A stretch of 64,000 nucleotides of DNA from Bilabrum cf. latius (lineage: Eukaryota). The position numbers were made by a program, and so were the translations under genes. The notes under the pieces are model-generated. The model was not told where the DNA came from. It saw nothing but the letters and a program-made list of their open reading frames with translations, and did no database searches. Below, one piece after another: positions 1,928 to 57,917 of the stretch (position 1 is the stretch's first letter; each line of letters begins with the position of its first letter). The stretch is taken from assembly GCA_965178125.1 (NCBI GenBank), contig OZ237742.1, positions 1,178,001 to 1,242,000 of the forward strand, written 5' to 3'.

Positions 1928-2171
1928 GGCTAGCGACAGTGATGCGGTCGCCTGTCAACTTGCAAATGAATTTCCGGATCACCCACCAGGCCACAAATGG
2001 ATAAATTAGCGATGAATGTGCCACTCTGTTCAGCGCTTGGTTGGGACATATCCAAATTGATCTACAGTAGCTCTGTTGCACTCGAATTGATCGCCGATGA
2101 CTGCCTCATACGACAAGAGTTGTGGACTCTCCCACCAATCGACCGGCAACGCAAGCAAGACCTGCTTCCTT

Positions 2172-4688
2172 TCACCTGCGCCTGCCCCCGTTACCGCCAC
2201 CGCGCCGGCCTCCACCTCCACCGCGACCCCGACCACCACCTCCGCCGCGACCACGCCCACCGCCGCCACCGCCCCTGCCACGCCCACCACCGCCCACCTG
2301 CTGCACCCTCAGCCCCCCGCCGCTCCCGCCGCCGCCGCCGCTCGTCCTCCTCTTCTTGCGAGCCCCGCCGTCACCGCCCTGCCCCTGGCCCTGGCCCTGA
2401 CCACGGCCGCCACCCCTGCCCCCCTGCTGCTGATGTCCCCCGCGGCCGCCCTTCCTGCCCTGGCCCTGGCCCTGGCCCTGGCTCTCGGGGCCGCCCTTGC
2501 GCTTCTGCCCGCGGCCGCCGCTGGCGCTGTTCCCTCCGCCCCCGCCCTTCTTGCCCCCAGCATCTCCCTTCATGCTGGTTTGACCACCCTTCTTTCCACC
2601 CTGCTTGCCACCTTGACCACCCTTGCCTCCCTTGCCACCTTGACCACCCTTGCCGCCCTGGCCCTGGCCCTGGCCCTGGCGGTGCTGCTGCCCAAAGGAC
2701 AGAGACATGAGCTGAGGGCCCTGCCCCTGCCCGCCCACGAGCGACGCCGGCATCTTCTGCCCCACGCGCAAGAGGACGGCGGGCTCCTGCAGGAGCGCTG
2801 TGGTGAGCGTCCTGAGAGACCGCACGATCCTGCGGGCGTCCATGGCCCGCTTGCTCTGCGACTCGATCGCCTGGCGCTCCTCAGTACCGGGCGTCTCCGC
2901 TCCCGCCGCCGCCGCGCTGCTGCTAGAGCTAGAAGAAGAAGAGGAGGAGGAGGAGGAGGAGGCCGCGGCCGCCTCCGCCTTTGCTGCCGCCTTCTTGGCG
3001 TCCACATACTGCTTCCTCTTCTTGCGCAGCACTGCCAACATCGCGCCCAGCCTGCCGTCATACAGCTCGCACCATGTCTTGAGGGCGCGCAGGGCAGACG
3101 AGAACCGCCGCGCTTCCTCCTGCATGGGATTGCTCTCCATCATGCCCATCATGTCGCTGGGCTGCCCCGTGAAGACCGCCTTCTTCTTGGGCTTGGGGTC
3201 GAGACCCGTCACCTCCATCAGAGCGTCAGGGTGCTTGCGGCACAGCGAGTGCACGGCATAGAGCAGCACCTCCAGCCGGCTGAAGTGCGGGGCGCCTGCT
3301 GGCAGCTCCACCTTGTCCTCCTCCTCCTCCTCCGCTTTCTTCTCCTCCTCCTTCTCGCCCGACGCCGACGAGGCTGCTGCTTCCTCGCCCGACGCCGCCG
3401 CCGCAGAGGTGGTCGCCTTGGCGAACTCCGAGGCGGAGGGGGGCGCCGTGGGCAGGTGCGCCTTGAGCGCGGCATACGCGGCGCCGCGCATCTTGCGGAT
3501 CTCATCCCCGTCCCGGTCGGGCCTCATCCCGTCGGTGAGCTCCACCAGCAGCCGCATGAGCCTGTCCGCCTTGCCCGGGTCCGCCGAGGCGGCCGCGTCC
3601 AGGAACTTGGCGTCCAGGAGGTGTGTTCTAGCAAAGGCCACGAATGCCTGGCCGTGCTCGCTCTCCCTCGTGCGGATGGCGAGTGCCAGTGCCCTGGGGA
3701 GGGTGCGGGTGAGCCTCACGACCACGGGGCCGGTGGGCTCGCCGCACTCGTCCAGGCGGGCGATCTCGGCCAGGACCCGCAGGATGCCGGCGCGGCCCTC
3801 GGGGGCCGGTCGCTTCTCCTTCTCTTCTTCTTCCCCGTCCTTCTTCTCCCCGGCTTCCTCTCCCTCCTTGGCCGCCTCCTCCTTGCCGTCGCCGTCGCCG
3901 GCCGAGGCAGCAGCATCGTCGGCTCCCGCGCCGCTGGCGGCACCAGACTCGCCAGCCGCTTCCTTCTTCGGCTTCGGGGGCTCGCGGCTGAAACGACGCA
4001 GCTGGAACAAGGTGCGCGCAGCCACCGCAAAGACGGGCTCCGGCGTGGCCTCGTTCATGAGAGGGGCAGACAGGATAGCGATGAGCCGATCCTCAGATTC
4101 CTGCGAGTTGCGGGATGCCTGGATCGCGAGGCGCTGCAAATCGCCGCGGCGCAGGTAAGTCATGGCTTTGGTGGCAAGCGCAGGGTCTTCCGGATCCTGT
4201 GCGTGCTTGAGCAGCGCCTCGATCGCGCCAGCCACGTCGCCGCGGATAGTCGTGCCTAGCGCTGCCTCAGCCGCCTCAGCCTCCTCTGCAATCTCGTTGT
4301 TCAATAACTAAGTCAAAACATCGGCAATCTTGCCAGTCACGGCCGGAACCCCAGCGCAAATGTTGGGCAATCCGCGGATTGCCTTGAGGCGCACAGGGGC
4401 GTTGTCATCCTCCACAAGGTCAAAGTACGCGTTCATTGCCTATTCCTATACGCTTGCATCGTCAACAAAGTAGCGAAAGTATTTGGCAATCCACTCTACG
4501 GCTAGGAATTTGCTCTGGGTGTTTGTAGCGCTGGAATCAAGGATCTTTCTGTACGCATCGGCGTGGTTGCCGCGCTCGGCCTCCGGGGCCCCCTCGAGCT
4601 CCTCGTGGGCAGAGTACAGGGTTGCTGCAAGCGGATTCGCTGCCCCCTTGAATACCTTCTCGCCTCCAGACGTCTTGGCTTCCTCCAT
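2172..4688 (-). CDS. API5: Apoptosis inhibitor 5 (API5)-like helical protein with Gly/Gln/RGG-rich C-terminal tail, ~838 aa
   Basis: ATG 4688, TGA 2172-2174. Motifs AYRKIL, SKFLAVEWIAKYFRYF and AMNAYFDLVEDDNAPVRLKAIRGLP..KIADVLT*LL match API5 (AINAQLDLCEDEDVSIRRQAIKELP..RVADILTQLL). In-frame TAG at 4446, 4440 and 4308. Confidence 0.85.
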
Positions 4689-4915
4689 TTCCGTTGAGAG
4701 GCGAAGAATAGGCCTAAAACAGCAGATGGACCGCCTCGCGCTCCATCGACGAAAAATAAAGATTTCTGGCTCGCAATTGTAGGGTGGCGTTTGGAACAAA
4801 TGCGCGGCGACAACAAGGAAGGTTCCGTTCCCTGTGCCTCGTCTCGCAAAGCAAACATCGCTGGTAGGACCCTACCGAACACGCGTTTCCAGGTAAAGAC
4901 TCAACGCGTGATACT
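4689..4915. promoter_or_regulatory. Probable short bidirectional promoter between API5-like and ABCF2-like genes
   Basis: 227 bp between divergent start codons, lower GC than the flanking CDS. No specific element identified. Confidence 0.45.
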
Positions 4916-7465
4916 ATGCCGAAGAAAATGAGTGCGAGAGCCATGCTGAAGGCCAAAAAGAAGAGGGAGGCCGAGGAGAAGAAGGCGAAGGAGGCAGCGG
5001 CCAAGGCCGCGGCTGGAGGAGCCGCCAGCTCGGAAGCCCCTGCTGCTGCAGGTCCTAGCTCTGGCGCCGGGGATTCTTCAGGAAACTCTGGTCTTGCTGA
5101 TGCCGCAAGGGCTGCTATTGATGCCGCCAGCGCGAGCACGAGCAGCGGCCCAGTGACCGCCGCCGACATGGAGGAGCGAATGAAGAAAGCGATGGACGCG
5201 AGAGAGAAAATCGCCGAGACGGCATTGCTCGGGGAAGAGATGCACAGAAGGCTTATGGACGAGGCGATGAGCAAGATCAAGTGAGGGTGTTTGTGGGCAG
5301 GTTTTTGAATTGTTTTTCACCAGGAACAGCGGTCGCATCCACTGGTCCGACAACGGCTGCGGCCGAATCAGAGGCCAACTCTGCAGCGATCGGGGCGAGG
5401 TGCAGCAGCAGTATCGCATCTAAATTCCGTTCCTGTCTTTCTCCCCTTTTCCGCCCGCAGCGTCACCTACACGGCGAGCAAGGAGCAGCACGAGAACGAG
5501 CGCGACATCCACGTCAAGGGGCTCTCCGTCACCCTAGGGCCCAAGATCCTGCTTAAGGACACGGACATCACACTCTCGCACGGAAACCGGTACGGCCTCA
5601 TCGGCCGCAACGGCTGCGGGAAGAGCATCCTGATGACCATCCTTGGCCGGAGGCAGGTGCCCATCCCCAAGCACATCGACTCGTACCACCTCGTGTCCGA
5701 GATCGACCCCACGGACATGTCGGCCATCGAGGCGGTGCTCGCCGTGGACGTCGAGAAGAAGAGCCTCGAGGCCGACGCAGAGCTCCTCACGAACGCCATC
5801 GGCGAGGGGGACGATTCTGAGGAGACGCTCACCAAGCTGGACGAGATCTACGAGCGGCTGGACGAGCTGTCGGCTGAGACGGCAGAGAAGAGAGCGGCTT
5901 CCATCCTCCACGGTCTGGGCTTCACAAAGGAGATGCAGGCCAAGAAAACGAAGGATTTCTCCGGTGGGTGGCGCATGCGCATCTCCCTTGCCAGGGCGCT
6001 GTTCCTCAACCCCACTCTGCTGATCTTAGACGAGCCGACTAACCACCTGGACATGGAGGCGGTGGTGTGGCTGGAGGAGTACCTGGCCAAGTTCAAGAAG
6101 ATTTTGCTGCTGGTGAGCCACTCCCAGGACTTCCTCAACACTGTGACCACGCACACGGTGCACTTTCACCTCAACAAGCTGTCGGTGTACGCCGCCAACT
6201 ACGACGGGTTCGTGGCGGCGCGTGAGGACAAGGAGATGCACCAGTCGAAGAGGCACGAATGGGAGCAGGCGCAGATCAAGAAGATGAAGGAGTACATCGC
6301 CAAGTTCGGGCACGGGACCAAGAAGATGGCCAAGCAGGCGCAGTCCAAGGAGAAGACACTCGCCAAGATGACACGAGAGGGACTCACAGAGGCGGTGTCA
6401 AAGGAGAAGCTCATCTCCATGAAGTTCCCCAACCCCGACAAGCTGCCCCCGCCCGTGCTGCAGATGCAGAACATCAGCTTCGGCTACACGGAAGACCAGC
6501 TGCTCTTCAAGGACGTCGATTTCGGGGTGGATCTCGACAGCCGGATCGCCCTCGTGGGACCCAACGGGGCGGGCAAGTCCACCTTGCTCAAGCTCATGTC
6601 GGGGGAGCTGACCCCGGTTAAGGGCGCTGTGCGTCCGCACCCGCACCTGAGGATGTCTCGCTACACGCAGCACTTTGTGGACACGCTCGACCTTGAGATG
6701 ACCCCGCTGGCCTTCTTCTGCGGGCTGAGACCAGAGGAGTCTGAGACGCAGATGAGGAGATACCTTGGCCGGTTCGGGGTGGGCGGAGACATGCAGACCG
6801 AGACGATGAAGTACCTCTCCGATGGTATCAAGAGCCGCGTGGTGTTCGCCATGCTGGCGCTGCAGAACCCCCACATCATCCTGTTCGACGAGCCCACGAA
6901 CCATCTGGACATGGAGTCGATCGACAGCCTCGCCGCGGCCATCAACAAGTTCGAGGGCGGGGTGGTGCTGGTGAGCCACGACATGCGGCTCATCTCGCAG
7001 GTGGCGGAAGAGATCTGGGAGTGCGACGCAGGCACCATCGAGATGTTCCCCGCGGACATCGGGGCCTACAAGCTGAGGCTCAGGGCGAGGATCGAGAAGG
7101 CGCAGAGGGCCTTCGAGGCGGGAGAGGTGGCGGGGGACGGCGTGGCGGCGGCCAAGGCCAGGGCGGACGTGGGTGGGGCTGCCGCGGGGGGTGCCTCAAA
7201 GGCCAGCAAGGCGCCGGCGGCAGCCAAGGCCGCGGGCAGCAGCAGCAGCAGTGCGAGTGGTGGCGCCAAGGGTTCTGCGGGGTCTGCTTCGGCCTCGTCT
7301 GCGGGGGCTGAGGAGGAGTCCAAGGTGTCCTCGTCGAGTCCTGCCCCTGGTTCTGGTTCCGCATCTGCCGAGGCGAGGGCTGCGGCGCCGGCTGTGGGTT
7401 CCAAGGGGTTCCAGATTGGCGGGGGAACCAAGAAGAAAGTGGAGGCGGTCGGGACGTGGAGATGA
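4916..7465 (+). CDS. ABCF2: ABC-F family ATPase (ABCF2/Arb1-like), 2 exons (4916-5280, 5461-7465)
   Basis: Two ABC domains: GRNGCGKS / FSGGWRMR / LILDEPTNHLD and GPNGAGKST / LSDG / DEPTNHLD; no transmembrane domain. Splicing 5281-5460 joins MSKIN-VTYTASK in frame. TGA stop; no internal TAG. Confidence 0.93.
5281..5460 (+). other. Spliceosomal intron of ABCF2-like gene (180 bp)
   Basis: GTGAGG donor, pyrimidine tract, CCGCAG acceptor; removal restores the frame. Confidence 0.85.
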
Positions 7466-7811
7466 TACATCCGGAATCCAGATGCGTGAAACAAAATGCA
7501 ACAATTGCCAGGAAAACTCTGAACCCGGAGTCGAACCAACGCACCCCCGCACTGGACAAAGCCACCGAACACGAACCGGCCAAGTGTATAATCCTCGTCC
7601 TGTCCCCTCTTGGCAAGAAGATTCGACTTGGCTCTCACACCACGCACCAAACTCGCAGGCCTTGCCCCGGCTCTTACCTAATTCCGTTGGGAGAGTAATT
7701 TGGACTGGTGGGACTAGCTGCAGGCATTTCGAATCAGAACTCTCATTCTTCAAAACTTTTCTTTTTACTCCACTTGCACTCAAGCGAACTGTCGACACGA
7801 ACCCTCTCCAG

Positions 7812-10800
7812 TCACCGCGAGCCTCCGCCTTCGACCGACTTGGACTCGTGCCAGTCGTACCCAGGCGTTCCGGCCGTCGAATACGACACCGCCCGGCCAG
7901 AGCCAGTGCCAGTGCCAGTGCCAGTGCCGCTCGCGCCTCCGCTCTTCCCGTTTGCATGCCCCTGCCGGCGATTCCCGCCGCGCCGGTCGCCGCCCAGCCG
8001 AGCCTGGCCGTCCACCCCAGGTGCAGCTGGCCGGTCCTCGCGCAGCTCTTCCAGCCGTAGGGGTCCACGGGAGGAGCTGGGAACTGCCACCGCATCGTGA
8101 GGCTCCCCGGCCTGTCCCGCCCCATTTCCCACCGTCACGCCACCAACTCGTCCGGCATGCCGCCCGGTTTGATCACCCTTCGTGCCACTTTGTCCATCTT
8201 CAGGTTGGGTAATCTCATCGTGGGGAGGCACCGGGTCACCATCCTCGTGTGGCGATGGCGGGTCACCACCGGGCACCAAAGGGCCCAGGGGCGGCGACAC
8301 GCCCGTGAGGACGCTGTCACTCCTCGTGACGGCCCCGCCCGCCCCTGTCACTGCACCTGTCGCCGCTCCTGTCGCCCCTGCCCCTGACCCTGACCCGCGC
8401 TGCGCAGCCCAACCCACGCCAGATTTCGCTTGTCGACCTGCGCTCTCCGTCCCGGCGCCGTCTCCCGTCCACGAGGCCTTCAGCCCGTCCTCGTCGTCAT
8501 TGTCCACTTCCACGCGAGCCTCCTCGCGACCGGTTTGACCACCCCCTGGTGCGTTCGAGACCGGCGATGTGTCTGTGTTGGATCCGGTGCGTTGCCGGCT
8601 GGACGCACCACCGCGCGATGCACCCTCGGAGGCACCAGCGAGCACGCCAAATCCGAACCCGCCGCTCGCGCTCCTCCGATCCGACCCGGAATCGATAGAC
8701 AGCTGCTCGCTGGTCTCCCTACGCACCTTGGCACCGGCAGCCCTACCCCTGCCATCGGCGTCACCATCCCTTTCTCCGTTCGTGTTCTAGTTCTCGTTCT
8801 AGTTCTCGCCTCCGTTGGCCATGGAAGTCCCCGCCGCGGGCCCCAGCAGACCCCCGCGGCCATGGGCGCCCCCATCCTATCCCCCACCCTCTTCCTCGAG
8901 GTGGGGGGAGGAGGCGGGCCCCAGCAGCGGGGAGGTGCCCGGCTGCGGGGAGTGGTGGTCGTTGGACTCAGAGTGGTGGTCGCATGCCGCGGCCTTGTGC
9001 CGTGCCCAGGCGTGGGCCTGCGTGGGGGCGGTTTCTCGCTTCATCTTCATGCTTGCCGCGGTGCCAATGCCCACGCCCACACCCACGCCCGACGAGGTCG
9101 AGGAGGAGGCGACAGGTGCCCTAGGCTCGGACAGAACGCGACGCATGGGCGCGTGGTGTGACGAGTGCGGCTGGGCGGCCCGGATCTCACCGCTGTGCTC
9201 GTGGGAGGGGGACAGCGGCGGCTTTCGCGTGGGGTATCGACCTACACTCTCCGAATGCCGGGGTACGGTGGGTGCGGGTGCATAAGCAGCACCAGCGCCT
9301 GCACCAGCACCAGCACCAGCACCAGCACCAGCAGCGGCAGAGTCCGCCCGACCCCCAGAGGCTGCAGCCGAGACTCCTGCGTGGTCGCCGCCGGTGACGC
9401 CTCCGCCGACAGAACCAGCTCCCGCCCGAGATTCGATTCCGGATCCATTCCCTCCGGAGCCGGTGCTGCTGTCCCACCCCGATCCCCGCTTCCGAGCCGG
9501 CATCTCGATGCCCATCCTGGCCAGCTCGGGGCCGAGCATGAGGTAGAGCCTCTGCAGCTCTTCGGAGCTCGCGCCGGAGCTCGCGCCGGATCCGGAGGTA
9601 GACGATGATCTCCCACCGCCGCCACCGATTTGACCACCTCCTTGGATCCTCTGCAGCAGGTCCCTGACGAGCGATTCCCTCTGCTGGGGCGACAGCACCG
9701 CAGCAGCGGGTGCTTCTGCCCCGCCCACCTCGCCCCCCTCGCCGGCGCCGCGCATCCGGTCCCCTGCGGAACCGCCCATGAAGGAGGCCGCGTGCGCCAG
9801 CGCCCCCGCGCCCATCCGCAGGGCTGCGTACGCGGCGGGATGTTCCGCAGCGAGGGGGTCTTCGTGCGCGGCGCCGCCGGGAGCGGCTGACGGCCGGCGG
9901 CCCCGCACCAGCACCATCGCGCCGCCGCCTGTGTTCCCTGTGTTCCCTGTGTTCCCCCTGTATGGGCCTACGCTCTCCTATGGGGCGGCGCCCCCACCTC
10001 GCTGCATGTCGGCTGCACTCTCCGGGGATGCGGGGGTCCAGTCGCCGCCCCCCATTTGGGGGACACCCCCCGGGGTGTACCCGGGAGTGGCGCGACCCTT
10101 GTCCTTTTCCCGCGGGTCGTCAACCGGTGCGGGCAGAGCCAGCATGGGGCCCCTGGCTGCACCACCGTGGGCTGCACCCATGCCCGGTATCCTCGCACCG
10201 CCTGGTATCTCCAGACCGCCCGTCCGCCTGGCTGCGTTGAACTGCATCAGGAACGCCTCCCTGGCCAAATGGAACGCGCTGGGCAGCTGCAGCACGGCCT
10301 CCGTCGCAGCCGCCGCCGCCCGCGCCTCGTCACGCGGGAGCCCCCGTGTGACGAGTGCTCTCTCCGCTGCCAGGGGGGCGAACCAGGGGTGCTGCAGGCA
10401 CTCGTGGGCCGTGGGGCGGTCGGCCGGGACGGGGCTAAGCATCCTCTTCACCAGGTCTTTGGCTCCCCTGCTGATGTGCGTCCACACCGGAGCTGGGAAT
10501 CCGAACGCGTTCGTCAGCACGCGCTGCTCCCACAGTTCTCGCCCGTTGAGCAGATGACCCAGCTTCTGCGCCGCCTCGTTGTGCTCCCACCCCTCGGCCC
10601 CAGCGGCTTCGAAGGGAAATTCGGCGGATAGCAGCACGTACAGCACCACGCCGCAGCTCCAGATGTCCACGGCCGCGCCGTAACTAGGCAGCTCGGACTC
10701 GGAATCTCCGCTCCCACCCCCGGTCCCAGCACCACCACCACCGTTGCTGCTGCTGCTTCCACCAACGCCGCGCTTCATTGCGCTGAGAGGCAGCAGCCCG

Positions 10801-18642: not shown

Positions 18643-21600
18643 TTAAAACCCGCCTCCCGCCCCGCTGCCAAACGCATACTCGTCGGAAGGCTCCGACGAC
18701 GCATCCCCGATCGACGGCGGCCTCGAGCTCCCCGGCGACATCCCGATCCCCACACTTTCCCTCCGAAAAGCAGCCCCCCTGCCGCCACGCGCCCCTGCGC
18801 CCGCGAACGACTTCATCGCGATGCGGCTCGGTGCACCGGCGCTGCTCCCACTCCCGTTCCCGCGCGCGGCGCCGGTTCCGCTGCCAGCGCTGGGCCCACC
18901 CTGCGGCGTGGTCGGCAGGGCGGTGTCCAAGTCCGGCATCCCGCCGAACGTCGCGGCGCCGGACCCGGTTCCGCTGCCGGAACGCGTGCTAGAGTGGGGC
19001 GACCTGATCTGCCCTGGCAGGCCTCCACCGCTCCCGGTGCGGCGGGACGAGGCCTCTGAACCTGACGGCCCACCGCCCGCCACGATCCTGGGCAGCATCG
19101 GGGGCGCGCCGCCCTTGAAGCCCCCTCCTGCGCCTCCCCCCGCCCCTCCTCCTTTGGACTTGGACATGAAATCGCTGAGGCCCCGCTTGGTGGGCTGCCC
19201 CCCTCCCGCCGCCGTGTTCTTCTTCCTATCCTCCGCCTCTTTCTTCTCCTTGTTCTGCCTGATTACGTCCTGCACCGCCTGCCTCAGGTACACGGACGGC
19301 CGCTTGCCGTGCATGCCCCTGCCTGCGCCTGCACCGCCCGCAGCAGGACCGCCCCCCAGTTCACCCAAGCCCTCCTCGTCGTCCTCCCCGTCCTCGTCAT
19401 CCTCCTCTTCGTCGTACCTGTCCTGCAGCTCATCCATCTCCGTCATCCACTCGGGATGCACCGCGGTGGCCACGTGGTCCGCCAATCGGCCAGGCAGAGC
19501 CACAGGGTCCCATCGCCGGTCTCCCGTCACTCCGTCGTCCACGCCACCCCGCATGAAATCCACGGCCATCCTGCCACATGCTTCGGACGCCTCTTCTAGG
19601 ACCTTCGGGTCGATGTCTGCGCGGCACATGAGCACTCGCCTCCCGATCGTGTACACGGCCCCGGCCTGCGCAGGCGCCTGCAGGACGAGTTCCTCCCACC
19701 TGTCGCCCGTGCGGTCGGGGGGGCCCCAGGTCAGCCGCAGCACGTTCCGGAAGAGCTTCGTCACGGCTTTTCGCTTGCCGTGCGGCAGGTACTGAGCAAA
19801 CAGGCCGGCAATCACCCTGAAGTCCGCGTGAAGCTGCACCGCCCTCGGGTCCTGAGCGGTCCACCCCTCCCTCTTCCCCACCGTCAGTCCCATGAAGCTC
19901 CGGGGAACAACGGACTCGGGCATCACCTCTTTGCTCATCATGCTCACCAGATACCGCTTCAGCAAGTTGAAGAGGGTGCCCAGCGCCAGGACCTCGAATG
20001 CCTCAGGCCGAAGCCACTGCTGGCCCACGCCTGCCGGGCGGCCGTCGGGTCCGTACGCGTCTCCCAAGAGGCTAAATATCTGGGACAGACGCGCCACGGA
20101 CCGGTACAAAGCCGGCTGCGCGGCATCCGCTCGGATTGCCTTGGGCGCTCTGTGATCGTCGTCCCCGTCACTGTCTACCGTCTCGCCCTGCTGTGCCTTG
20201 ATCCAGCCCGTCCCCTTGAAGAGGTAGTTGAGCAGCTGAGGCGCCGCCTCCCCGGCGCCGGGGTCGGTTTCCGTGATCATGTCCGTGACGAGCGCCGTCA
20301 GAATGTCAACGGACATGTGGTGGAAGGTCTGCAGGGACTTGAGAGACCTGTCGATGACCTGGGCCTCCCCCCCGAGGTCATCCAAGAAGAGGTTGTGGCC
20401 CCGGGCCGCCCCAGGCCCTCGCCCCCCCGCGCCGCTCATGGGGCCACCTGCCCCAGCGCCCGGTCCCGCGCCCTCCAGATGCACCCCGCTGCCCGCGTGC
20501 CTCGCTGCATCGAAGAGCTCTGCGAACTGGCTGCGCTCTGCCTCGATCACCTCCGTGTGCTTCTGCTTGTACTTGTCCCGCACCACGTCCCTGACCTTTG
20601 CGATGTCGTTGATGACCCGTGCGCACAGCTTGAGCTTCTTGGAAAGCCTCCACTTGTCCGTGTCGTACATGGTCTGGAGATACTCGGCCTCCTCTCCAGC
20701 GAAATCGATCGACAGCTGGCACACCTTGCCCAGCAGCTGCCGCTGCAGCAGCGCCGAGCCAGAGCCGACCGAGTGTCCAACGTGCAGGTCGATCACTGAG
20801 AATAGTCTCTGAGGGCCCGTGGTGATCGCGTGCTTCCCGTCGGACGAGTTGAGCTGCTTCTGCGTCGAGGGCACAACCAAGAGCGATAGAACCTTGTCGA
20901 CGGACGTCTTGATGGCCTTGCCGATGATCTCGGCATACGCCTCTGCGAGCGCCTGGCGAATCTCCATGAGCTGCTTGAAGCTCGTGTCCTCCTGCTCCGT
21001 CAGCTGGATCTTGGTGCGGGCAAGCGCACCGAGCCTGCTGGCAGCGTACTGCTCGATGGCTACGACGACCCTCATTACCACTTCCTGGGTCACGCGAGCA
21101 AACATGGCAGGGTCCTGCCCCTGGGCCCGGGCCAGCGACACGGTGGCTGCAGTATCCATGCCGATGGCAATGCCGGCGACGATGGCGGCCGCCTGCTCCC
21201 CGTTCATGGCGCCCTGCGACAGCGCCCTGAGGACGGTTTTCTGCCGCGCCTCGCTGGCCCTCTGCACCGCTTGCACGCACTCGATCCCCGCGCTGAGCGT
21301 CTCCTCCAGCTCCAGCAGCTCCTCGGCGTCCTCCACGCTGTCGTCCACCGGTGGCCGCGCCGCAGCGGATGAGGCAGCCCTCTCCTCGTAGCTCTGCTGC
21401 GCCTCTGCCATGATGCCCAGGGCCTGCTCCGACCCAGCCGCCACCATGCCCTGCCTCATGGCGGTGGCTCGGTCCTGCCCGCCCGCGCCTGCAGACACGT
21501 ATGCCTTGTCCGCCTCCTGCAGCATCGTCTGCAGCCAGCTCGGGAGTCGGCTTCTAAGCGCGCCCACGTCTATCGTACCCCCGCCGTTACCGCCGCTGGG

Positions 21601-24535
21601 CGCATCGTCCGCAATAGAATCGTCAGAGTCTATAGAGATGGCGCGCATCCGAGTCGCTGCCGGTGCCGGTGCAGGTGCCTGTGCAGGTGTCGGCGCGGGT
21701 GCCTGTGCGGGTGTCTGCTCTGGTGCTGGCCTGAACGCGAGCGCTGTCGATGGCGCAGTGACGCCCACAGCGACGCGTGCCCCGGCCCCAGACCCAGCCC
21801 CAGCCCCTCCACTACTGGTGCGAGACGAAGTGCCGCTTGTGCCGTTGGGATGTGTCTGTGCAGGCAGTTCCGGCGCGACCACCTTTTGCGGGGCCGGTGC
21901 AGCCGCGCTCTCGGTGGTGGGTGCTAGTGGGGCTGAGGCCGAGGCAGCGGCCGCACCCCCTTGCTTCGGCGCCTTCTTCTGTTCCCTGGCCGGGCTAGCA
22001 GTGCCTTTCTTCACTTTCATCATGCGGAGCTTCGCGGCCGGTGGCGCGTGCCTCGCCCCCACTGATCCTCTCCTTCTGAAGTTTCTCTCGGGCGGCTTGG
22101 CGGCCTCCTCCAGCGCAGCAATCCTCTGCTGGTAGTGTGCGCTGATTTCCTCTGTCCTGGCCTAGATGCGAGCCGCTCGCCTGGCCCGCTTCAGCCTCAA
22201 CAGGGCGTCTGCCAGGGCGGCCGCCTCCCGTTGTTCCCTGGTGGATCCCAGCTGCACAGCCTCGATCATCTCTTCAGTGGCCCCTTTGTCATCGAGCTTC
22301 GAGGGAACGCGGAACACCAGCTCGGTGCCCCACAGCTCCTGTGCCGGTGACGCCTTGCCCCGGCCACCCTTCTTTGCCCTGGAATCCAGCACCGCCTGTG
22401 ACCGTGCCACGCACCCGTCGTGCAGCCACCTTGCCCGCTGCGACACGGCGCCCTGATCCGCTTCCGGGGGCGCCTACCGGACGCGCACCACCACCTCTCG
22501 CTTGAGCTTCTTGGCTACCTTTTTGTGCTTCCGTTTCTGCAGGTCGTACTGCTTCTCGCAGAGCTCGACGAGCTCCAGAGGCACCTGCGCTGCTGGCTTC
22601 CCCGTGGGCACCTCGTCGGCTGAGGAGAATAGAATCTCCTCCTCGCCCTCTTCCTCCAGCGGAGGGTACCCCGCGTCCTCGTGGGAGGTGTACACGTACA
22701 AAAAACCGCGGAGCACCCTAAAATAGACGGATTTCCAAGAGTGGGTGGGTGCCTGTGCCGCCGTTTCCTCCTTGGCAGCACCTGCGCCGCCGGTTGCAGC
22801 GCCCGTCGCAGCGCCGTCTGCCTCCTCAGTAACCTGCATCTTGACGTCGCACTCGTACCAGATCTGCTCCCCGAGCGCCGCGGACGTCTCCTCGAACTTG
22901 CCGTCCCTGATCTCAGTGAGGCCCAGCAGCTGCTCGTCCGTCTTGGGCTCGGCGTCCTTCTCTCCCACCGCAGCCAGCTTCAACTGGAGCTCCGCGCGCA
23001 CTTCCTCCAGCGCCACTCGCGCCTGTTCTACCCCCGGGTCCTCTTCGTCTGAGTCTGGCCCTTCGTCCTCGTCCTCGTCCTCATCCGAGCCCGCACCGGC
23101 GCCCGTTGCGTCGCTATCCACGTCATCTGAGGCGGCAGTGTCGTCTGTATCGGAGTCACTCCCGGGGCTTGAATCGTCGCTGTCGCCGGACGCCTTGATA
23201 GTTTCCAGCCCTGCCCCCGCACTGACACCGACGCCGACGCCTATGCCTCCACCAGCTCCCGCACCAGCTCCGCTACCTGCAGCGGCGCCATGTCCTTGCT
23301 GAGGAACGGCATCGTCAGCAGCAGCAGCAGCAGCCCCCGCTCGCACCGCCTGCGTTGGGGCTGCTTCTTGCTCTAATGCAGCCGCGGATGGCGCGGAAGA
23401 CGAGACGGTGGCTGCCCCCACCGGTGGGGGCAGGATATCCCCTGGCCCTGCCCCCGGTCCAGGCCCCAGCAAGTCGCTGATCGAGTCACCACCCCCCACG
23501 ACCACGGCAGGCCGGCGGGACTGACGGCGCTGCATGGTGACCCGCGAGTCATCGAACGCGCTGATATCATTGCCAGACGCGCGCTGCCCCCCAGCCCCCC
23601 CGCCATCCCGCCCAGAGTCAGCCGCGCCACCACCGCCATACTGGTCGAATCCCGCTCCCTCACTTGCCGTACCTATCCCTGTCCCATCCAGACCATCGCC
23701 GGGCGCCACGGCTTCACCCCCACCGTCCTCGAATCCCCCTCCGGCCGCAGTGGCCGCGGCCTCCGCCTCCCGCCTCGCCCTCTGCGCAGATGACAGCGGC
23801 AGCTCGATGGGCGCCTTCTCTGCGACGTAGAGCGCGTGCATGTCCGCTAGGATCTTCACTCTGCCGGCCTGTGCGAGGGACTCTGCTCTCAGTCGTAGCT
23901 CCGAGTGGTCCTCGAACGTGATGGTTATCTCTGCGTCGTAGTCTGACGTCACCTCGGCCACGCGCGCCAGAGCCACCGCTCCAAGCGGGTTCGACATCGG
24001 GGTGCTATCGCTGTCATAGTAGGTCAGAAACCCGTTGCGCGCGCGAAAATGGCGTGTAACCCATGAACCTGTTAGTGTGTACTTTTTCAAGTAGCAATCG
24101 GAGCTTCTTAGAAATTCCTGCGTTGGCGAGAATGGCGTGAAGGCGTGGTTCGGTGAGTGGTGCGGCTAGCTTCAACCCTTCAGAACTCGGAAATGCAGGC
24201 ACGCTGGAAGAGGGTCGCATGATACATGAAGCTCACATCATTCTGTTCCGTCGCGCGCTGTGGGACGGCCTCTCGCTTGAACACGCATCGAAACCGGCTG
24301 CGGAGGAAGGTGTGGGAGATTGCAGCTATTCGATATGGCAAATGATGAAGTAAAGAGCAACAGTTATATATAGTGCGTGAATTATTTTTGGTCGGGTTGA
24401 CGCTCAAGCACAAGCCATAGTCTCATAAGTGCCGCTCAACCAAGCGAGACGTTCGGCAACCGAAACATTGGGGACAGGATTTGAGGCTCACAGCTGGTCT
24501 TCTGCTTCAAGATCGATGCCACCACAGCATGCCAT
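18643..24535 (-). CDS. Large protein with two PH-like domains and a Sec6/EXOC3-like helical region; exons 24535-24492, 24297-24237, 24117-18643
   Basis: N-terminus MACCGG. PH-like YLKKYTLTGSWVTRHFRARNGFLTYY..LGAVAL and WKSVYFRVLRGFLYVY; Sec6-like TTGPQRLFSVID and LCARVIND. Two GTGAGC..CGCAG introns keep phase. TAGs at 22474 and 22162; ends in TAA. The Sec6 assignment is tentative. Confidence 0.7.
24118..24236 (-). other. Intron 2 of PH/Sec6-like gene (119 bp)
   Basis: GTGAGC..AACGCAG, phase 0; removes an in-frame TGA. Confidence 0.75.
24298..24491 (-). other. Intron 1 of PH/Sec6-like gene (194 bp)
   Basis: GTGAGC..TCCGCAG, phase 2; joins EDQL-RFRC. Confidence 0.7.
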
Positions 24536-25033: not shown

Positions 25034-28000
25034 TCAAGTGCCAGCCCCTGCCGCTGCCCCTCCAGTACCTGTAGCCGCGCCGCCATCGTCCTGATCTTCG
25101 TCCTGACCCCGGTTCCCACCCTTTTCCTCACCGGGACTGGGACTGCCAGCACCTCCGTCCCCCGAATCGAACATGTTCCGCCGACTCTTTCTTACCTCGG
25201 TGCCTGCCCGGAGCCTGCTGACCCTTTGATTTTCCTTCATCTACGATTCAGTCAGCCTTAGAGGCTGGGCAGGCGCGGTCATCAAGCGGTCTGGCCTGCC
25301 ATGCGCGTGTGACTCGGACCCTTGGCTTCGTGGTGAGGCTGCCTAGACCTATGCCTACACCTAGCCAAAGTCGTCGTTGGACCGGGAGTGGCCGTGCCGC
25401 GGGGATGATGCGGTGCTGGACCGCGGCCTCAGATACGGCTTCCCTGTCTCCTTGGCTTTAACGCTGTGAACTGTTGCCATGGAATCTTGCCAATTGGGGA
25501 TCGATGCCTGCATGGCCTGCTTCAGGAGCCGCTCGGGCAGCTCCTTGGAGTCCATGTCGGCCTCGGTGTGCCTGGGACTGCTGCCGCGGCTGCGCTGCAG
25601 GCCCAGGGCAAGCTCGCGGCAGGCATCTTTTGCACGCTACAGCGTCTCTTTGTCTATGTCTTTCCTGCAGCACAGCACTTTCTCTCCCACGCGATACCCA
25701 GCCTTCGCCCATCGCGGGACCTGTGCGATCAGCTCTGCCCACCTGTCCCCAACGAAATCTGGGGACACCAGCACCAGACGCAGCACGTTCCAAAACAGCT
25801 TCATGGTGCCACTGTTGTCAATGTGGGGGAGAAAACGCGCGAAGAGGGCGTACAGCACTCGGTAGTCGAGGTACAGCTACACCGCTTCAGGCTCTCCTGC
25901 CGCCCAGCCCTGCCTGCCCACCAGCCAGGAAATTCTACTCGCTGACTCGGATTTCGGAATCACGGACTCCTACAGGAACTGCGAAAGGTAGGCCAGCAGA
26001 GTATTGAACATAACTCGAAGAGCCACGATGCGAAACGATTGAGGCTGCAGCGCCATTGCGCCAGCCCTGGCTCGTATCCCGTCGTGTCTGAATGTGTCAC
26101 CAAGAATCAGGAGTACTCCATTCACACGACACACCTGCTGGTGAAGTGCAGGCTGTGCATCCATCGCATTGGCGTCGACCGGGCCAGAGACGCCCAGGTG
26201 CTCCCCCTCCTATTTGTCGAGACTTCTTCCAACTGCCGCCCTAAACCAGTCGCCTTGGAACAGCCTGCGCTTGTCAGGTTGTGCCTCCCCAGAGCCGCTG
26301 CCCACACCTTCCGCAACCACATCAGATACCAGCATGTGCACTACATTGAGAGCCATGGTGTGAATTGCACGGACTTGCCTGAGCACAGTGCGGAGTGCCT
26401 GCCGCTCAGTGTCGCGAGCACGCCATCCGGCTCTATCAGGCACAGGCGCACCCCCTTCGCCGAGATCGTGGGCGACGCCGCGGACCCTGGTTGAGCACGA
26501 TAACGAAGCTGGTGTGCTGCAGACCGCAGCACCCGCAGCACCTGCAGCAACTGATTCTTTGTCCGTAGAAGCCACTTCCGCCAGCTCGGGGCCGAGCGGC
26601 AAAAATTGCCCCCCAGATGCCTCAGTAACGCGCTGGGCAGCTCGGCTGTCGCCTTCAACCAGCATGGCCTCGAGCTTTGCGATGCACTCGTCCCGAATGT
26701 GCGTCTCGATCGTCTCGATGTCGTTCACGATGCGCGCGCAGAACCTGAGTCGTCCTTTCAGCTGAGCCCTGCTGCTGCTGTGGTACCCGGTCTGCAGCTT
26801 GTGCCATAGCCCGGCCGCAAACTCGGCCAGCAGCTCGCAGAACCTGACGAGCGCCTCCCGCTGCAGGAGCAACGACCCTGACTCGGCCACCGCGCGCATG
26901 TACGAGTCAACCTGCTCGATCATCCGCAGCGGGGCTGTCGTGTGCAACGGGGTGCCCTTCTCGGCTGCCAGGTACATGGTCTTCCTGGACCTCGCCCCGA
27001 ACACAAGCGCAAGCATGCTGGTGCTCTTGTCCTTGACGATCTGACTCAGCACCTCCAAGCACGCATCTGCAACGGTCGCCCTCGCTGTCTCCAGATCCGT
27101 CGCCGTGGCGCAGATCTGCGCATGGTCAAGCGGCACGTTGGCCGCACTCAGTGCAGCGCTGCGACGGGCGAGGTAGCTCTCGATCGAACCCACGAGGCGC
27201 ATGCTCTGCTCTGATCGACGCCCACCGGCACCGTGCCAGATGCTGCCGCGCCTGCTGAGTTTGAGTCGCCCATACCCGCGCCGGATGCGGCCCCGACTGC
27301 ATCATCCATGCCGGCAAACTCGCTGAACTTCATCGCCTCTACCTAGCCGAGGGCATCCAGCGCAATTCTGTCCACACCCACGGCTAGCGAAGCAGCGATT
27401 GCCTCGGCGGTGCCTTGCCGGACAGCCACGTTCCACGCGGCAGTCTGCTCTTCCCGAAACCAGCTGTCGCATAGAACGCTCAAACGTCGCATCTTTGCGG
27501 TCGCAGCTGCAACAATGCTATTCGACGTGCTGGTTTGTGTCTCGGCGACTGGTTCGGTCGCTGCCTCCTGCGAAGAAGCTGAGGCGGCGCTTCCTGCAAC
27601 AAGGGCAATAGTCTCCTCAAGCGCTGTCTTGGCCATCTGGAAGGCATGGTCCTCCGCGGCACGAAGTACCTCCTGTTCACCCCTGGTCTTCGCCTTGCTG
27701 GCTGCGAGAAGCATGCCGTGCATCCACCGCGGGATGCCGGATGACGCAGCTTCTGTCATGTCAGCCAGCTCGGTGGCAAGCAGATACCATGGCTCCTTCG
27801 CAACCGCACCATCGCCAGCACCGATGCTTGCTTCTCTCTCACCACTCAATGGATCTTCTGCTTCGAAGGCTGCCCTACGCTCACAGCCGTCGATTGCAGG
27901 GCCAGCACCTGCTGCTGTCGGCCTGGCGCTCGTGCTGCTGACCCCGCGGCTTCGGCTTGGGTCAGCGCCAGCCGAATGTGAGACGAGCGGTAGCATTCGA

Positions 28001-29577
28001 CTGTCTTGAGGCTTAGTGGTTCTATTGGAGCTAGACGCTGCGATTCCGGTCAGGTCGATGCTTTGGCTGGCTCGCAGTGCGGAGGCTCGCAGAGTGCTGG
28101 CACCTAGCACGCTGCCTCTTCGCGGCTCCCCTGTCGCTTCGATCAAATCGCCCTCTGCTTCGCTTTCTCCCCCTTTCAACGGTACTCGCACCGGCGATTG
28201 CGGTCCTTCTTTCTGGTTTGAGCGAGCAATGTATCTGGCAACAGCCCTTCCGAGCGCCTCGGTCTCCTGACCCGACCTGCTGGCCGCCTCCTGCACCGCG
28301 AGGACCAGCTCAGCGGCGAGATCGTGCCGTCGGGGCGCCACCCTGAGAACGACCTCTGAGCCCCAAAGTAGAGCAGAAGCAGCAGGCATCGAAGGCACGC
28401 GTTCATCTCTGGAGGATAGAACACTCACTGCCGCTCTGTGCATCATGCGAGTGAGGACTGCTCGCGCGCAATTGTCGCCAGCGGTGGGTGCATCCTGGAC
28501 TTGAATCACCACTTCTCTTTGCAGCTTCTTTGGCACACGCGCGGAGCTCGCACGAGCCTGCATCTCATAGCGTGTCTGGCAAGTTTTCAGCAGAAGCATC
28601 GGGACCATCGCGAGGATCCTGCCTTGTTCCCCACCGGCAAGTGCATACTCGCTGTCGCCTCGGTCGGCTCCTGCTGCGGTGCTTGCACCACCCATGGCCG
28701 CACTGGAATGTCCACCCCCTTCCAGTGATGCGTCCACTGCTTCTCTCAGAATCAAGATGCCATCCTAGATGCTCACGTCCACTGGGATATATTGGAAGCG
28801 AGGCGGTGGCAGCGACTAGGACCGCTTAACCCGTGTCTGCGGCCCCGGCCCTCCTTCGCGCATGGACGCGACCCGGCCTGCCCTCCCAAGGGGTGACGGT
28901 GCTGCACCTTGTTCCTATGCCGTCGCGCTCTGCACTTTCATCTTCACGCCGCTCTTCAGTCGGAGCAGCACCGGTTCACCCAGGGCATCCTTAGAGGCCT
29001 CTGACTTGTACGCTTGGTCCCTGATCGATTCTGACGAAAGCATGGCTTCCGTAACGGCTATTTCTGCCGCGTATTCTTCCGAAGAATCCGGTGGAGGCGC
29101 GCTGGGGCGGCCAGCCACCGGTGGCAGCGCATCTGCCTCGATTGGCTCGGCAAGCTCACGCTCGTCTTCCGCTGCGACGCGAAAAGAGGAAATCGCCGCA
29201 CCTAAACCCTTGCAAGCGAACAAATTGGCAATGAAAGCAACGGTGCAAGGGATGCGCCGGTGTTTTACAAAAGGGTGGGGGGAGCTCTCACTAGGGTCGT
29301 AGAATTCAGAATCACTGCTGGAGCCGCTGCCCGCCCTGGTTCGCCCGCCGGTTGGCAGGCCTGCAAGACGGTGGTCGGCGACTCTCCCGGAATCAGCAGC
29401 AGAATCATGCCCATCGGAAGCCTGCAGCAAGACAAAATACAGCATGTAGCACAAATTGCGTGAGGAGGCTGGCTTGAAGGCAGCTGGTTCGGTCCATCTA
29501 CTATTCTCAAGCTCGTCGAAGCAGCCATCCATGATGGCCAGTCCCGTGGTTTGCGTTTCTTCCGGATCCGCAATCAT
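25034..29577 (-). pseudogene. Diverged tandem paralog of the PH/Sec6-like gene with a frameshift at ~27204-27213 (pseudogene, null allele or assembly error); 5' end uncertain
   Basis: Collinear matches to the neighbour: KKLQREVVIQV/KKLKREVVVRV, LWGSEVVLRV/LWGTELVFRV, FCARIVND/LCARVIND, DAQPALHQQV/AAQPALYRSV, KLFWNVLRL..GDRWAELIAQVP/KLFRNVLRL..GDRWEELVLQAP. About 13 TAGs; TGA at 25034; one frame change. Confidence 0.65.
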
Positions 29578-30050
29578 GCACGAATGTGTCTGCTGTTTGA
29601 TTCATTGGCCTTACACCGTTCATTTTTATGGTGTATTGTCTGTGGCACTGCGCATGAAAGCAGGTGCAAGATCCAAGCCCATAGCCGAGTTTTTTTTCCA
29701 CCACAAGCCCGATGATGTCGTCCACAGAATGAGCATCACCATATATACAAACTTGCATGGCCAACAGAGGAACGACAACCCTTGCGCGTAGGGCTGCAGA
29801 GGTAACTCACATTGCACTGGCGAAACTGACTTGAATGAAAACTCAGCTACCTTGGCAGCCCAAGCAGACTCGTTCTCGCAATCCAGCTTTCTTGTTAGAG
29901 AAAGGTTCGTCCAAACTCTGCAAGTATTTACAAATATTGATGAGTGCTTGGCGTGCCTTTCGGCCATATTTCAGGCATTCCGAGTACTGCTATCGGCGAG
30001 GGGGAAATCAAACCACGACACATCGGGCGTGCGCCGTGAGAGGAGGGCCC

Positions 30051-52839: not shown

Positions 52840-55800
52840 TCACCACCCATCGTCGTCGGCCAGCTCGTCCAGCAGAGGGTCTGCTGCCGCGCCGCTGCTG
52901 CCGCCGGCACCGGCTCCAGACGCAGCCGGAGGCGTCGCCGCAGGTGCCGCCACGGGTGCAGCCGCCCCTGCTCGCCTCGCCTGCGGCTGCGCGTACGTGA
53001 CCAGGCCCAGGCACTGCTCGCCTACCCTGCTCATGCCGTCCACGCGGCACACCTCCCCTGCGTACTCGGGCTTGTAGTGCGCCCCGCACAGGGGACTCAT
53101 CACCGAGGGAGACCCCCTGTAGATCGGGGTCAGCGAGGCCCCGCACAGCACGAAGGGATTCCTCTCGTCGTAGTCGATCGACAGCGCGTTCCTGCCCTGC
53201 TTCTCGCCCGCAGCCACCACCCGCCGCGCCTTGCCCGCCTTGTCCTCGTAGGCAGCAGTTGCCGCCTCGGGCATCTCGAGGAGCCGCCGTGCGAACCCCA
53301 CTGCGTGGATGAAGTTCTTGGCCTTGTACGCGAGCGCCATGGCCAGGTTGAGCACGAGGATCTGGTGCGCGGGGAGCAGCTTGCAGTGGGTCAGGTACGC
53401 CGCCAGCTCCAGCTTGCGGCCCACGTCCTTGGTCGTCGCCCGCGCGTCCGTGAGGATGCACGCCAGCTTGTACTCCTTGCAGGAGGCCAGCAGCTGCTTG
53501 ACGGCCTCCCCCTCCGCTCTCCTGTCCACGCAGGCAAGCGGAATGGATGCCATCATCGAGTCCAGGTGGGCGGACAACACCTTGAACTTGCCGCCGAGGA
53601 AGAGGCGGTACACGGTGGCCTGCATGTCGTTCAACCGGGCCAGGGTGTAGAGCGTGGAGGGCCGCTGGGACGACCCGCCCCCCTTACCCGAGGGGACCGT
53701 CCGCGACAGCGGGGTCACCAGCGGGGGCAGGCTGGGCAAAGTGGGGAGGCTGACCCGCCCCGCGGCGTATGCCGCCAGCATCTTGGGCTTGAGGCGGTCG
53801 AACTTCACGATGCCAGCCTGCCTGCGGAGCAGCTCCACGGCGGAATCGAAGCGGCCGACCGCGGCGTGCTCCGCGGCGACCGACGAGTCCATCGTCCACC
53901 GGTCCGCGTACCCGCGCCCCGCCGTCGGCACGATCGTCGCCCCCGCCGAGGCCCCGCCCTTGCCACCTCCAGCCGCCTTTCCACCAGGGGAGCTTGGCAG
54001 ATCGGGCAGGTCCAAGTCGGCCTCGCCGTCCCAAGCGCCGCCCTCGCCGTCAGCCTCCTCCTCCTCGGCCGCAGCCCCGCCGGCCGCGGCCCCGCCCTTG
54101 CCCCCATCGTCGTCCCCGTCCCCGTCCAGGTCCAGGTCATCGCCGCCCCACGCACCGCTCGCGGCGGCCGCGGCCTCTGCTGCCAGCGCCGCCTCAGCAG
54201 CGGCCGCGTCGCCGTCCTCCTCCCGACCCTCGGCAGCCGCCTTGAAGGAGGCCTCGAACGGGCTGGCCCGCACGGCGCACAGCGGCCAGTCCTTCCCGCG
54301 CACGATGGGGGTGGGGGGCACGCAGGCCACTGCTCCCGGGTCCCCGTTGGCTGCATCCGTGGGCGCGGACCGGGTGCCAGGCGTCACGAGAGACCCTTCC
54401 GCGTGGGCGGCCGCCGCCGCCCCGATCCCGCTCGTGTCCGGCAGGGGGAGCCCCGCCTGCTCCATGGCGTCCTGCAGCCGCTTGGCGTCCTCCTCCAGGC
54501 CGTAGGTGCGCGCGCACGCGTAGGCCAGGGCGACCTGCCCCGCGTCCTCGAGGACCTTCACCCTCTCCCCCGCGTCTCCAAGGTACAGGGCGTTGTGGAA
54601 GCGGGCAAGCGGGTCCTAGGTCTTGTTGGCGATGGCCATCATGCGCCCCACGTAGGCACGCTGGCCCGAGATGAGGTACAGGAAGCTGAGCCTGTCCATG
54701 TCCCTGACCTTCTGGTACGCGGTCTCGGCCGTGTCGAAGCTGCCCTGCCTCAGCGCTTCGGCTGCCAGCCTGCGCCACACCTCCGGCTTGTCCACCTTCA
54801 TGGCCGCGTCCTTGGCCTGGTCCAGGTTGCCGCACGCGAGCGCCAGGCCGAATCTCGTCTCCGGGTCCTCGACGAAGTGCAGCGCCACCTCTGGATAGCC
54901 GGACCGCTGCAGGTACCCGATCACTGCCTCGCCCACCATGGACCCCGTCCGGATGAGCTGCACCACCCTGGCATACTCTTTTCTCTGCAGCGCCTGCTTG
55001 AAGAGGTACTCGGTGGGGTCGTACCGCAGGACCCTCACCTTGCTGGACCGGTCCATGCACCTCGCCCTCGACTCTCCCGCCTCGAACACGTACACGGGGG
55101 AGTCCAACGTCCGCAGCACGCCCCGCTCGCCCTTCTCCGTGGGCAGCAGGTACTTGAGGTGGGTGAGAGTTGAGTACACGAGCACGCCGTTCTCGTCCCA
55201 GGCCGCGCTCTTGACCTTGGCGATCTCGTGCACGGCGCACACCTAGGTCAGGTCCTGCGTGGCGATCACGAGAGTGGTCTTACTCATGAGGGCAACGTGC
55301 TTGCCGTCGTGAGACCACGCGACGTACCTGACCTTCACCCCGGAGATCTCGTTGATGATCCGCCTGGACTGCGTCTCGAAGAGGCACACCCTGTCCTGCC
55401 TCCGGACCAGCACCCTGCCGGGGGTGGAGGCCTGGAAGAGCTGCTCCGTCTGATCCGCGTAGGGGGGATCGATCCGCTTGACGGTCTTGTTGGCGAGGTC
55501 CTTGATGGCGAGCTTGCGGTTGGAGTCGAGCACGACGAACGATGCCCTCGACAGGAAGGCGACCGACAGGCCCAGGCCGGTGACAGCCCTCGGGTCCGAC
55601 TGGTTGAGGTTGAACAGCCGGTACATGCCCCCCTCCTGCTTGGACCAGATGAGCACGTTCTCCTCGGCGGGGTTGTAGCGGTTGTGCTGCAGCTCCCGGG
55701 GGAGGGTGGTGAAGTTGTGCACCGACGTGTTGGAGGGCACGTCAGCGACCCTGACGTCACTCCCCGACTCGGTCATGGCGCGGCGGAGCTTCTGGTCCGA

Positions 55801-57787: not shown

Positions 57788-57805
57788 GAGAGAGAGAGAG
57801 AGAGA
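57788..57805 (+). repeat. (GA)n microsatellite in the divergent intergenic region
   Basis: About 9 GA units; a shorter run lies near 57563. Confidence 0.8.
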
Positions 57806-57917
57806 AAATAGAGTTTTCGCACGCAATTCACGAGACTCTAGCGTTGCGCAGGTTGTGATGAGTGCGGCGCCGACCACGTCGAGATGCTGACCTGCGCTGA
57901 CACGACGCACAAGCAGC

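Follow-up and report, generated by a model that had tools for sequence, protein, structure and literature searches.

UAG alone is read as glutamine (NCBI table 15) in Iotanema spirale, Protocruzia tuzeti, Hartmannula sinica, and Trochilia petrani, as listed in passages of two published papers (PMC11687900, PMC5304391). UAA and UAG are both read as glutamine (UAR = Gln, NCBI table 6) in many ciliates, some Ulvophyceae, Hexamita, Streblomastix strix, and the aphelid Amoeboaphelidium protococcarum according to passages of the same papers (PMC11687900, PMC5304391). UAG has also been listed as leucine in the uncultured rhizarian exLh and in TARA phyllopharyngean ciliates, and as serine in Scotinosphaera (PMC11687900, in part). 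In this work, a stretch of 64,000 nucleotides (contig OZ237742.1, positions 1,178,001 to 1,242,000; hereafter the window, at its full length) was analysed, in which an API5-like gene carries three in-frame TAG codons. Judging from the sequence, the window is very probably nuclear DNA of a GC-rich, stramenopile-like eukaryote in which UAG is an ordinary glutamine (Gln) codon and TGA, probably together with TAA, serves as stop, which is the table 15 type of code.

The API5-like gene is a minus-strand frame of 839 codons that starts at the ATG at 4686-4688 and contains no TGA or TAA before its terminal TGA (Table 1). In the two alternative reading frames of the same genes, TGA and TAA together amount to 17.1 per 1000 codons, from which we infer that a frame of this length is not expected by chance. 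The frame, read with TAG as a residue, matches the Pfam API5 profile (PF05918) with a score of 119.1 bits (cut-off 27.4; E = 3.5e-34) and therefore belongs to the API5 family by the curated profile cut-off. Homology runs through all three TAG codons since the match extends over residues 24-202. The solved human API5 (PDB 3U0R, 3V6A, 6L4O) aligns to residues 13-180 (E = 9e-18) with ADILTQLL opposite ADVLTqLL, where the lower-case letter denotes TAG. The API5 homology proposed in the earlier note, on which its reading of TAG depended, is thus borne out.

The two API5 motifs, A-D-[VI]-L-x-Q-L-L and D-L-x-E-D, are both present in the window protein as ADVLT(TAG)LL and FDLVEDD. Among 155 aligned rows, the columns of the first motif are occupied by D in 133, L in 144, Q in 144, L in 131, and L in 139 rows, and those of the second motif at codons 90-91 by D and L in 143 rows each. 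The window protein consists of a conserved N-terminal domain, low-complexity inserts (acidic and Ala/Gly/Ser), and a Gly/Arg/Gln-rich C-terminal tail. About 170 N-terminal residues align with human API5, including the ADILTQLL and DLxED stretches, and a short second match, PHFSRLEVLLYAVHSLCRKHPDAL opposite FSYVECLLYSFHQLGRKLPDFL at residues 468-492, is weak (independent E = 130). The two proteins differ in length (about 500-540 residues in human API5 and 838 in the window protein) and in the long acidic and Ala/Gly/Ser inserts of the latter, because of which the Pfam profile is matched only over the part given in Table 1. RGG-rich tails also end the API5 homologues P0005 and P0007. A TGQPS motif, recognised by eye only, is common to the window protein and P0005-P0007, and the rest of the C-terminal half is interrupted by low-complexity inserts.

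To collect the API5 family, 1.84 billion representatives were searched exhaustively with phmmer, and 264 proteins were returned at E<=0.001. The column counts were taken from the best 150 of these 264 proteins together with the relative P0002, re-aligned to the query. The TAG at codon 127 is located at the near-invariant Gln of the first motif: Q occupies 144 of 147 non-gap rows, or 143 of 146 when three close relatives are dropped and one row is kept per protein. The columns of the other two TAG codons are variable. Codon 81 is aligned with A in 32, Q in 30, S in 18, and H in 12 of 128 rows, and codon 83 with K in 24, E in 21, A in 20, and Q in 19 of 147 rows. On the evidence of these alignments, codon 127 is the diagnostic one of the three, and codons 81 and 83 are compatible with Gln but do not identify it on their own. 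The strings reported in the earlier note, KIADVLT-TAG-LL at the motif Gln and V-TAG-E-TAG-AMN ahead of D-L-x-E-D, were both found exactly, with AYFDLVEDD following the second. Its glutamine reading of the API5 TAG codons is supported, as the decisive column is Gln-dominated and the protein is an API5 homologue, and its caution on the two upstream TAG codons was well placed.

P0002 (79% identical, 641 aa) carries Q at codon 127, R at codon 81, and L at codon 83. A word-indexed protein search with API5 residues 1-210 returned no relative besides P0002. The gene calls of other relatives break exactly at codon 127, where P0003 ends in ...ADVLT and P0004 begins at codon 129. When a single API5 protein was used as query for related loci, a JGI metagenome contig (L001) was found; no related locus was found with the same query among genome contigs. 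L001 is syntenic with the window and exhibits the same divergent (head-to-head) pair of API5 and ABCF genes.

The first 630 bases of API5 align without gaps between the window and L001 at 71% nucleotide identity. The differences within these bases number 39, 23, and 119 at codon positions 1, 2, and 3, with the third-position bias present in each of the three segments parted by the TAG codons, and the codon differences comprise 95 synonymous and 43 non-synonymous ones. This pattern of substitution marks API5 as a single frame that is under selection before and after each TAG. The TAG at codon 127 is kept in L001, while 5 of the 6 flanking codons change synonymously. L001 has CAG (Gln) opposite the window TAG at codon 81 and GAG (Glu) opposite that at codon 83. 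In the other direction, L001 has TAG where the window has CAG at four sites (API5 codons 164 and 185 and two ABCF codons), GAG at one, and GCG at one, the last in low-complexity sequence. The partner codon at the non-shared TAG sites is therefore CAG in 5 of 8, GAG in 2 of 8, and GCG in 1 of 8 cases, such that interchange of UAG and CAG between close relatives is seen alongside the one shared TAG at API5 codon 127.

The TAG codons could instead be real stops, arising from a pseudogene, programmed read-through, or an assembly error, or they could be removed by splicing or RNA editing. The standard code does break API5 three times, and the gene calls P0003, P0004, and P0273 of relatives are cut at such codons. 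Homology and third-position-biased divergence nevertheless carry on past every TAG, the TAG at codon 127 is retained in a second species with synonymously changing flanks, and 14 long frames of the window hold 92 in-frame TAG codons, all of which argues against real stops. Public sequencing runs bear on the same question. The stretch searched for, or part of it, was found in 20 rows from 13 studies, of which 8 hold at least half of its words. The contigs of four runs (X2, X6, X7, and X8, with X6-X8 from two studies) were compared with window positions 2000-7600.

The ABCF intron was used as an internal RNA control. The contigs of X6, X7, and X8 join position 5280 directly to 5461, the shorter arm of the joint measuring 255 letters, whereas the contig of the DNA run X2 is unbroken through the intron and agrees with the window. 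Since the X6-X8 contigs lack this intron and end at gene borders, they are taken to derive from RNA. Contigs of 2,093-2,141 letters from these runs cover positions 2564/2568-2890 and 2987-4656/4708 and, over API5, exhibit 0 other letters, no gaps, and no joint, with all three TAG codons unchanged. UAG is thus kept in the mature mRNA as represented by contigs rather than raw reads, and splicing and complete editing are excluded by the unchanged TAG codons in intron-less contigs. The agreement of the DNA run X2 with the window likewise counts against such explanations. The window API5 orthologue is intact and transcribed, and real or processed-out stops are scarcely credible as an account of its TAG codons.

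The reading of UAG as a sense codon extends over the window. When TAG is read as sense, the total of frames of at least 300 codons rises from 22,114 to 38,677 codons and the longest frame from 1,173 to 3,009 codons. The same treatment of TGA was tried and rejected: the total reached 59,657 codons, but the longest frame was only 1,365 codons, and the inflated total reflects the abundance of TGA, the most frequent stop triplet here. The 14 long frames comprise 18,549 codons, and the in-frame density of TAG (4.96 per 1000 codons) is the same as the off-frame density (5.09). Gln-type codons in these frames are CAG (596), CAA (137), and TAG (92), with TAG accounting for 11% of the three. Pfam matches were obtained in 7 of the 14 frames (API5, ABC-F, protein kinase, nucleotide-sugar transferase, coatomer alpha, DUF4397, and EF-hand).

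In-frame UAG was found at Gln-dominated columns of conserved genes other than API5. The coatomer-alpha (COPA) gene has TAG at codon 479 (55243-55245), where the column holds Q in 74, H in 22, and N in 12 of 120 rows. The ABCF gene of L001 has TAG in DMRLIS-TAG-VAEEIW, where 114 of 119 rows of the column carry Gln (the rows stem from the 120 listed matches less the close relative P0273); the gene call of P0273 (90% identical) stops just before this TAG. In the 561 usable family columns (API5 N-terminus and part of COPA), the Gln fraction averages 0.40 at the 5 TAG sites, 0.26 at the 21 CAG/CAA sites of the window, and 0.032 at the 535 other codons. The placement of TAG is thus non-random (permutation test, P = 3.5e-4). 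An alignment-free test of CAG/CAA among the neighbours of TAG gave 0.054, ranking 4th of 58 codons, against 0.039 overall and 0.073 for CAG, and is suggestive only.

Two short periodic peptides have TAG as their recurring codon, G-q-V-q-A-q-V-q-A in frame g6 (25343-25363, minus strand) and E-N-q-N-E-N-q-N in the protein-kinase gene (8787-8801, minus strand), and TAG takes part in repeat expansion there like an ordinary codon.

The stop triplets number 148 TAA, 333 TAG, and 726 TGA on the plus strand of the window, and TGA is the usual terminator here. The question of whether UAA is still a terminator separates the UAG-only code from one in which UAA and UAG are both Gln (UAR = Gln, NCBI table 6) and TAA is merely too rare to be seen in 64 kb of a GC-rich genome. 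UAA and UAG change together in most known cases according to passages of PMC11687900 and PMC5304391, and the low TAA count above would suit such a code. The gene ends speak against it. The ABCF C-terminus ends in ...GWR-TAA in L001 and in ...TWR-TGA in the window, such that TAA stands at the conserved terminus of an L001 gene that also uses TAG as sense. Frame g5 of the window likewise ends in TAA, and reading on would extend it by 319 codons into the next gene. These two gene ends are a small sample in which UAA is kept as terminator. Reading TAA as sense barely alters the long frames either; only two of them lengthen, in both cases at the end (from 2044 to 2163 codons and from 1843 to 2116), and no long frames are merged internally. 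No in-frame TAA was found as a Gln codon, against 92 TAG and 137 CAA (64 kb plus 4 kb). TAA is therefore probably still a terminator, which makes the UAG-only variant the better fit, and a UAR = Gln code is unlikely.

TAG might also act as a terminator in some genes, which would add to the reading of UAG as Gln rather than replace it. Since TAG counted as sense when the frames were defined, none of them can end in TAG, and in several of them a TAG lies 20-65 codons from the TGA (for example, codon 2763 of 2,782 in frame g9 and codon 2968 of 3,009 in frame g10). Two conserved C-termini can be checked for a TAG terminator, both of them of ABCF; the window copy ends in TGA and the L001 copy in TAA. 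The equal in-frame and off-frame densities of TAG are as expected of an unconstrained sense codon. Such a dual role is quite unlikely.

Several points weigh against UAG as a Gln codon in this organism. No tRNA gene was detected in the window or L001 by ARAGORN, no Rfam match was obtained in the window at gathering thresholds, and the window contains no eRF1 gene. The count of zero in-frame TAA is partly built into the definition of the frames. The RNA type of X6-X8 is the guess of a tool, with X6 flagged as 'probably DNA' and none of the three recorded as RNA, and rare variants are dropped from contigs, which makes the contigs compatible with partial editing. The transcript-like contigs end at 2564-2568, about 130 codons ahead of the terminal TGA. 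The depth of X6-X8 falls about ten-fold below these positions, over the G-rich stretch that encodes the Gly/Arg/Gln tail, and that of the DNA run is flat; no GT donor was found at the break and no poly(A) in the contigs. We take it to reflect a failure of assembly or coverage across the G-rich tail, although it may mark a real 3' end. Two of the eight orthologue comparisons at TAG sites give Glu. The column of the TAG at COPA codon 688 is variable (G 54, N 29, K 19, and Q 5 of 120), and no more than 2 of the 5 alignable TAG columns of the window are Gln-dominated. The in-window paralogues (g5 against g6 and g7, 30-33% identical) exhibit Gln at 1 of 15 TAG sites, a comparison that is uninformative rather than contrary because they are too distant.

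The Glu partners and the columns of API5 codon 83 and COPA codon 688 could be taken to mean that TAG encodes another amino acid (Glu, Lys, Leu, Tyr, Ser, or others), and codes with UAG as Leu, Ser, or Glu do exist (PMC11687900, in part). The log-odds summed over the five TAG columns do not agree with this: Q scores +12.8 bits, the next best residue is N at -4.2, K and E score -6.3 and -9.7, and Leu is outside the eight best residues. TAG is found on two near-invariant Gln columns, those of API5 codon 127 in the window and L001 and of 'LISQVA' in the L001 ABCF, and it is opposite CAG at most of the differing sites between species that are 71% identical in DNA. A sense codon for any residue other than Gln is very improbable.

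The likely mechanism in table 6 systems is a suppressor-type tRNA-Gln together with an altered eRF1. By analogy with other UAG = Gln lineages, a tRNA-Gln with the anticodon CUA, one base from the normal CUG, would read UAG in the window organism, and its eRF1 would lack efficient recognition of UAG and keep recognition of UGA and UAA. High G+C pressure may first have made TAG and TAA terminators rare and TGA dominant, and TAG could then have been captured through C-to-T change of CAG codons.

The features of the window are listed in Table 1. The ABCF2-like gene has no TAG in its window copy, and its L001 orthologue has TAG codons at two conserved positions. The kinase domain of the protein-kinase gene is split by very long Gly/Ala/Ser-rich inserts, and every TAG is located outside the alignable kinase core. 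A tandem paralogue of g5 is split over two overlapping minus-strand frames (25034-27301 and 27148-29601; 30-33% identity), in which the N-terminal half of g5 is matched by g7 and the C-terminal half by g6. The frames overlap by 154 bases, which suggests that g6 and g7 are one gene with an intron or frameshift near 27148-27301. The two very long frames are rich in RG, poly-Asp/Glu, and Ala/Ser runs, and their sole family match is a sub-threshold DUF7952 that is SANT-like in look. The COPA frame lacks the first ~100 residues of the family, and its homology starts at FHHEYPW directly after ...TPASQ, a pattern that points to an intron acceptor near 56515 and to one or more upstream exons in 56680-58160. 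The DUF4397 family is mostly bacterial, and its member here is located in a eukaryotic context.

Table 1. Features of the window and the basis on which each was placed.
Feature	Position	Strand	Basis
API5-like coding sequence	2172-4688	-	838 sense codons and TGA; three TAG codons read as sense
TGA taken as API5 terminator	2172-2174	-	frame reading; first TGA or TAA of the frame
Pfam API5 profile match, all three TAG codons inside	4086-4622	-	residues 24-202 of P0001; profile positions 3-175 of 536
In-frame TAG, API5 codon 127 (KIADVLT-TAG-LL), near-invariant Gln of the motif	4308-4310	-	family column and relatives
In-frame TAG, API5 codon 83 (E-TAG-A)	4440-4442	-	frame reading and column counts
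In-frame TAG, API5 codon 81 (V-TAG-E)	4446-4448	-	frame reading and column counts
ABCF2-like gene, exons 4916-5280 and 5461-7465	4916-7465	+	head-to-head with API5; arrangement kept in L001
ABCF intron (GT..AG, 180 bases), internal RNA control	5281-5460	+	X6, X7, and X8 contigs join 5280 to 5461
Protein-kinase gene, 2,044-codon frame, 12 TAG codons	7812-13943	-	Pfam match in three stretches
Frame g5, 1,843 codons, no Pfam match	18643-24171	-	frame reading
Very long frame, 2,782 codons, 12 TAG codons	35068-43413	+	frame reading
Very long frame, 3,009 codons, 16 TAG codons	43654-52680	-	frame reading
Coatomer-alpha (COPA) frame	52840-56679	-	Pfam match
DUF4397 protein, two in-frame TAG codons	58163-59584	+	Pfam match (E = 1.4e-28)

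The G+C content of the window is about 63% (57-72%). In a FastTree tree of 461 coatomer-alpha columns, the window is located within a clade of 40 leaves with a support of 1.0; the sole named members of this clade are Hondaea, an ochromonad, and Spumella, and the nearest leaves are unnamed. The best named ABC-F matches (57-59%) are almost all from oomycetes, brown algae, diatoms, and an ochromonad. These two single genes suggest a stramenopile affinity of the window. Amoeboaphelidium, an algal parasite with UAR = Gln, was considered as the source and rejected: its genomes are about 40% G+C in the part of PMC10608142 that holds Table 1, against about 63% here, and no near-identical named proteins were found. 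A full-text literature search, with most subscription journals and supplements outside its scope, returned nothing relevant on a nuclear code change in a stramenopile or labyrinthulomycete; one preprint on the subject deals with the ciliate table 6 code alone, according to passages of it.

The window appears to hold a known kind of code variant in an apparently new lineage. It is possible, and we propose it tentatively, that this is the first nuclear stop-codon reassignment in a stramenopile-like lineage, in which UAG alone became Gln, a change that at least two species (the window and L001) share and that arose in a genome of about 63% G+C with TGA as the working terminator. If this is true, the change took place where codon capture driven by GC pressure would lead one to expect it, in a setting opposite to that of the ciliate cases, which are AT-rich. 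Few nuclear codes give UAG and UAA separate meanings; the relevant passages of PMC11687900 list a single fornicate, a single rhizarian, a single green alga, and a handful of ciliates. Another independent case, in two diverged species of a GC-rich, stramenopile-like lineage, would add a datum on how often UAG and UAA are uncoupled and would permit a test of the GC-pressure and codon-capture route. The interchange of CAG and TAG between the window and L001 would offer a means to date and polarise the code change, and API5 codon 127 is a clean single-column diagnostic for screening relatives. Standard-code gene callers will cut the proteins of this organism at TAG, and annotation must use TAG as Gln; P0003, P0004, and P0273 are such cut fragments that are already in public protein collections.

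The code of the window resembles most that of the table 15 lineages, where UAG is likewise Gln, UAA is kept as terminator (as is probable here from two gene ends), and in-frame UAG codons are located on conserved Gln columns. UAG is a minority Gln codon in each: 11% here, about 8% in I. spirale (PMC5304391), and 18.5-31.8% in two phyllopharyngeans (PMC11687900), as given in passages of those papers. The lineage differs, as the best named relatives of the window, by two genes, are stramenopiles and the known cases are a fornicate and ciliates. The terminator also differs; the window, at about 63% G+C, uses mainly TGA, whereas phyllopharyngean ciliates are described in part of PMC11687900 as preferring UAA. 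The table 6 systems share with the window the reassignment of a stop codon to glutamine, but the window has no in-frame TAA in the 14 frames and TAA ends the ABCF gene of L001. The UAG = Leu and UAG = Ser systems, as far as the passages on them extend, share the uncoupling of UAG from UAA, and they differ in the residue, since Leu and Ser are far below Gln at the TAG columns of the window.

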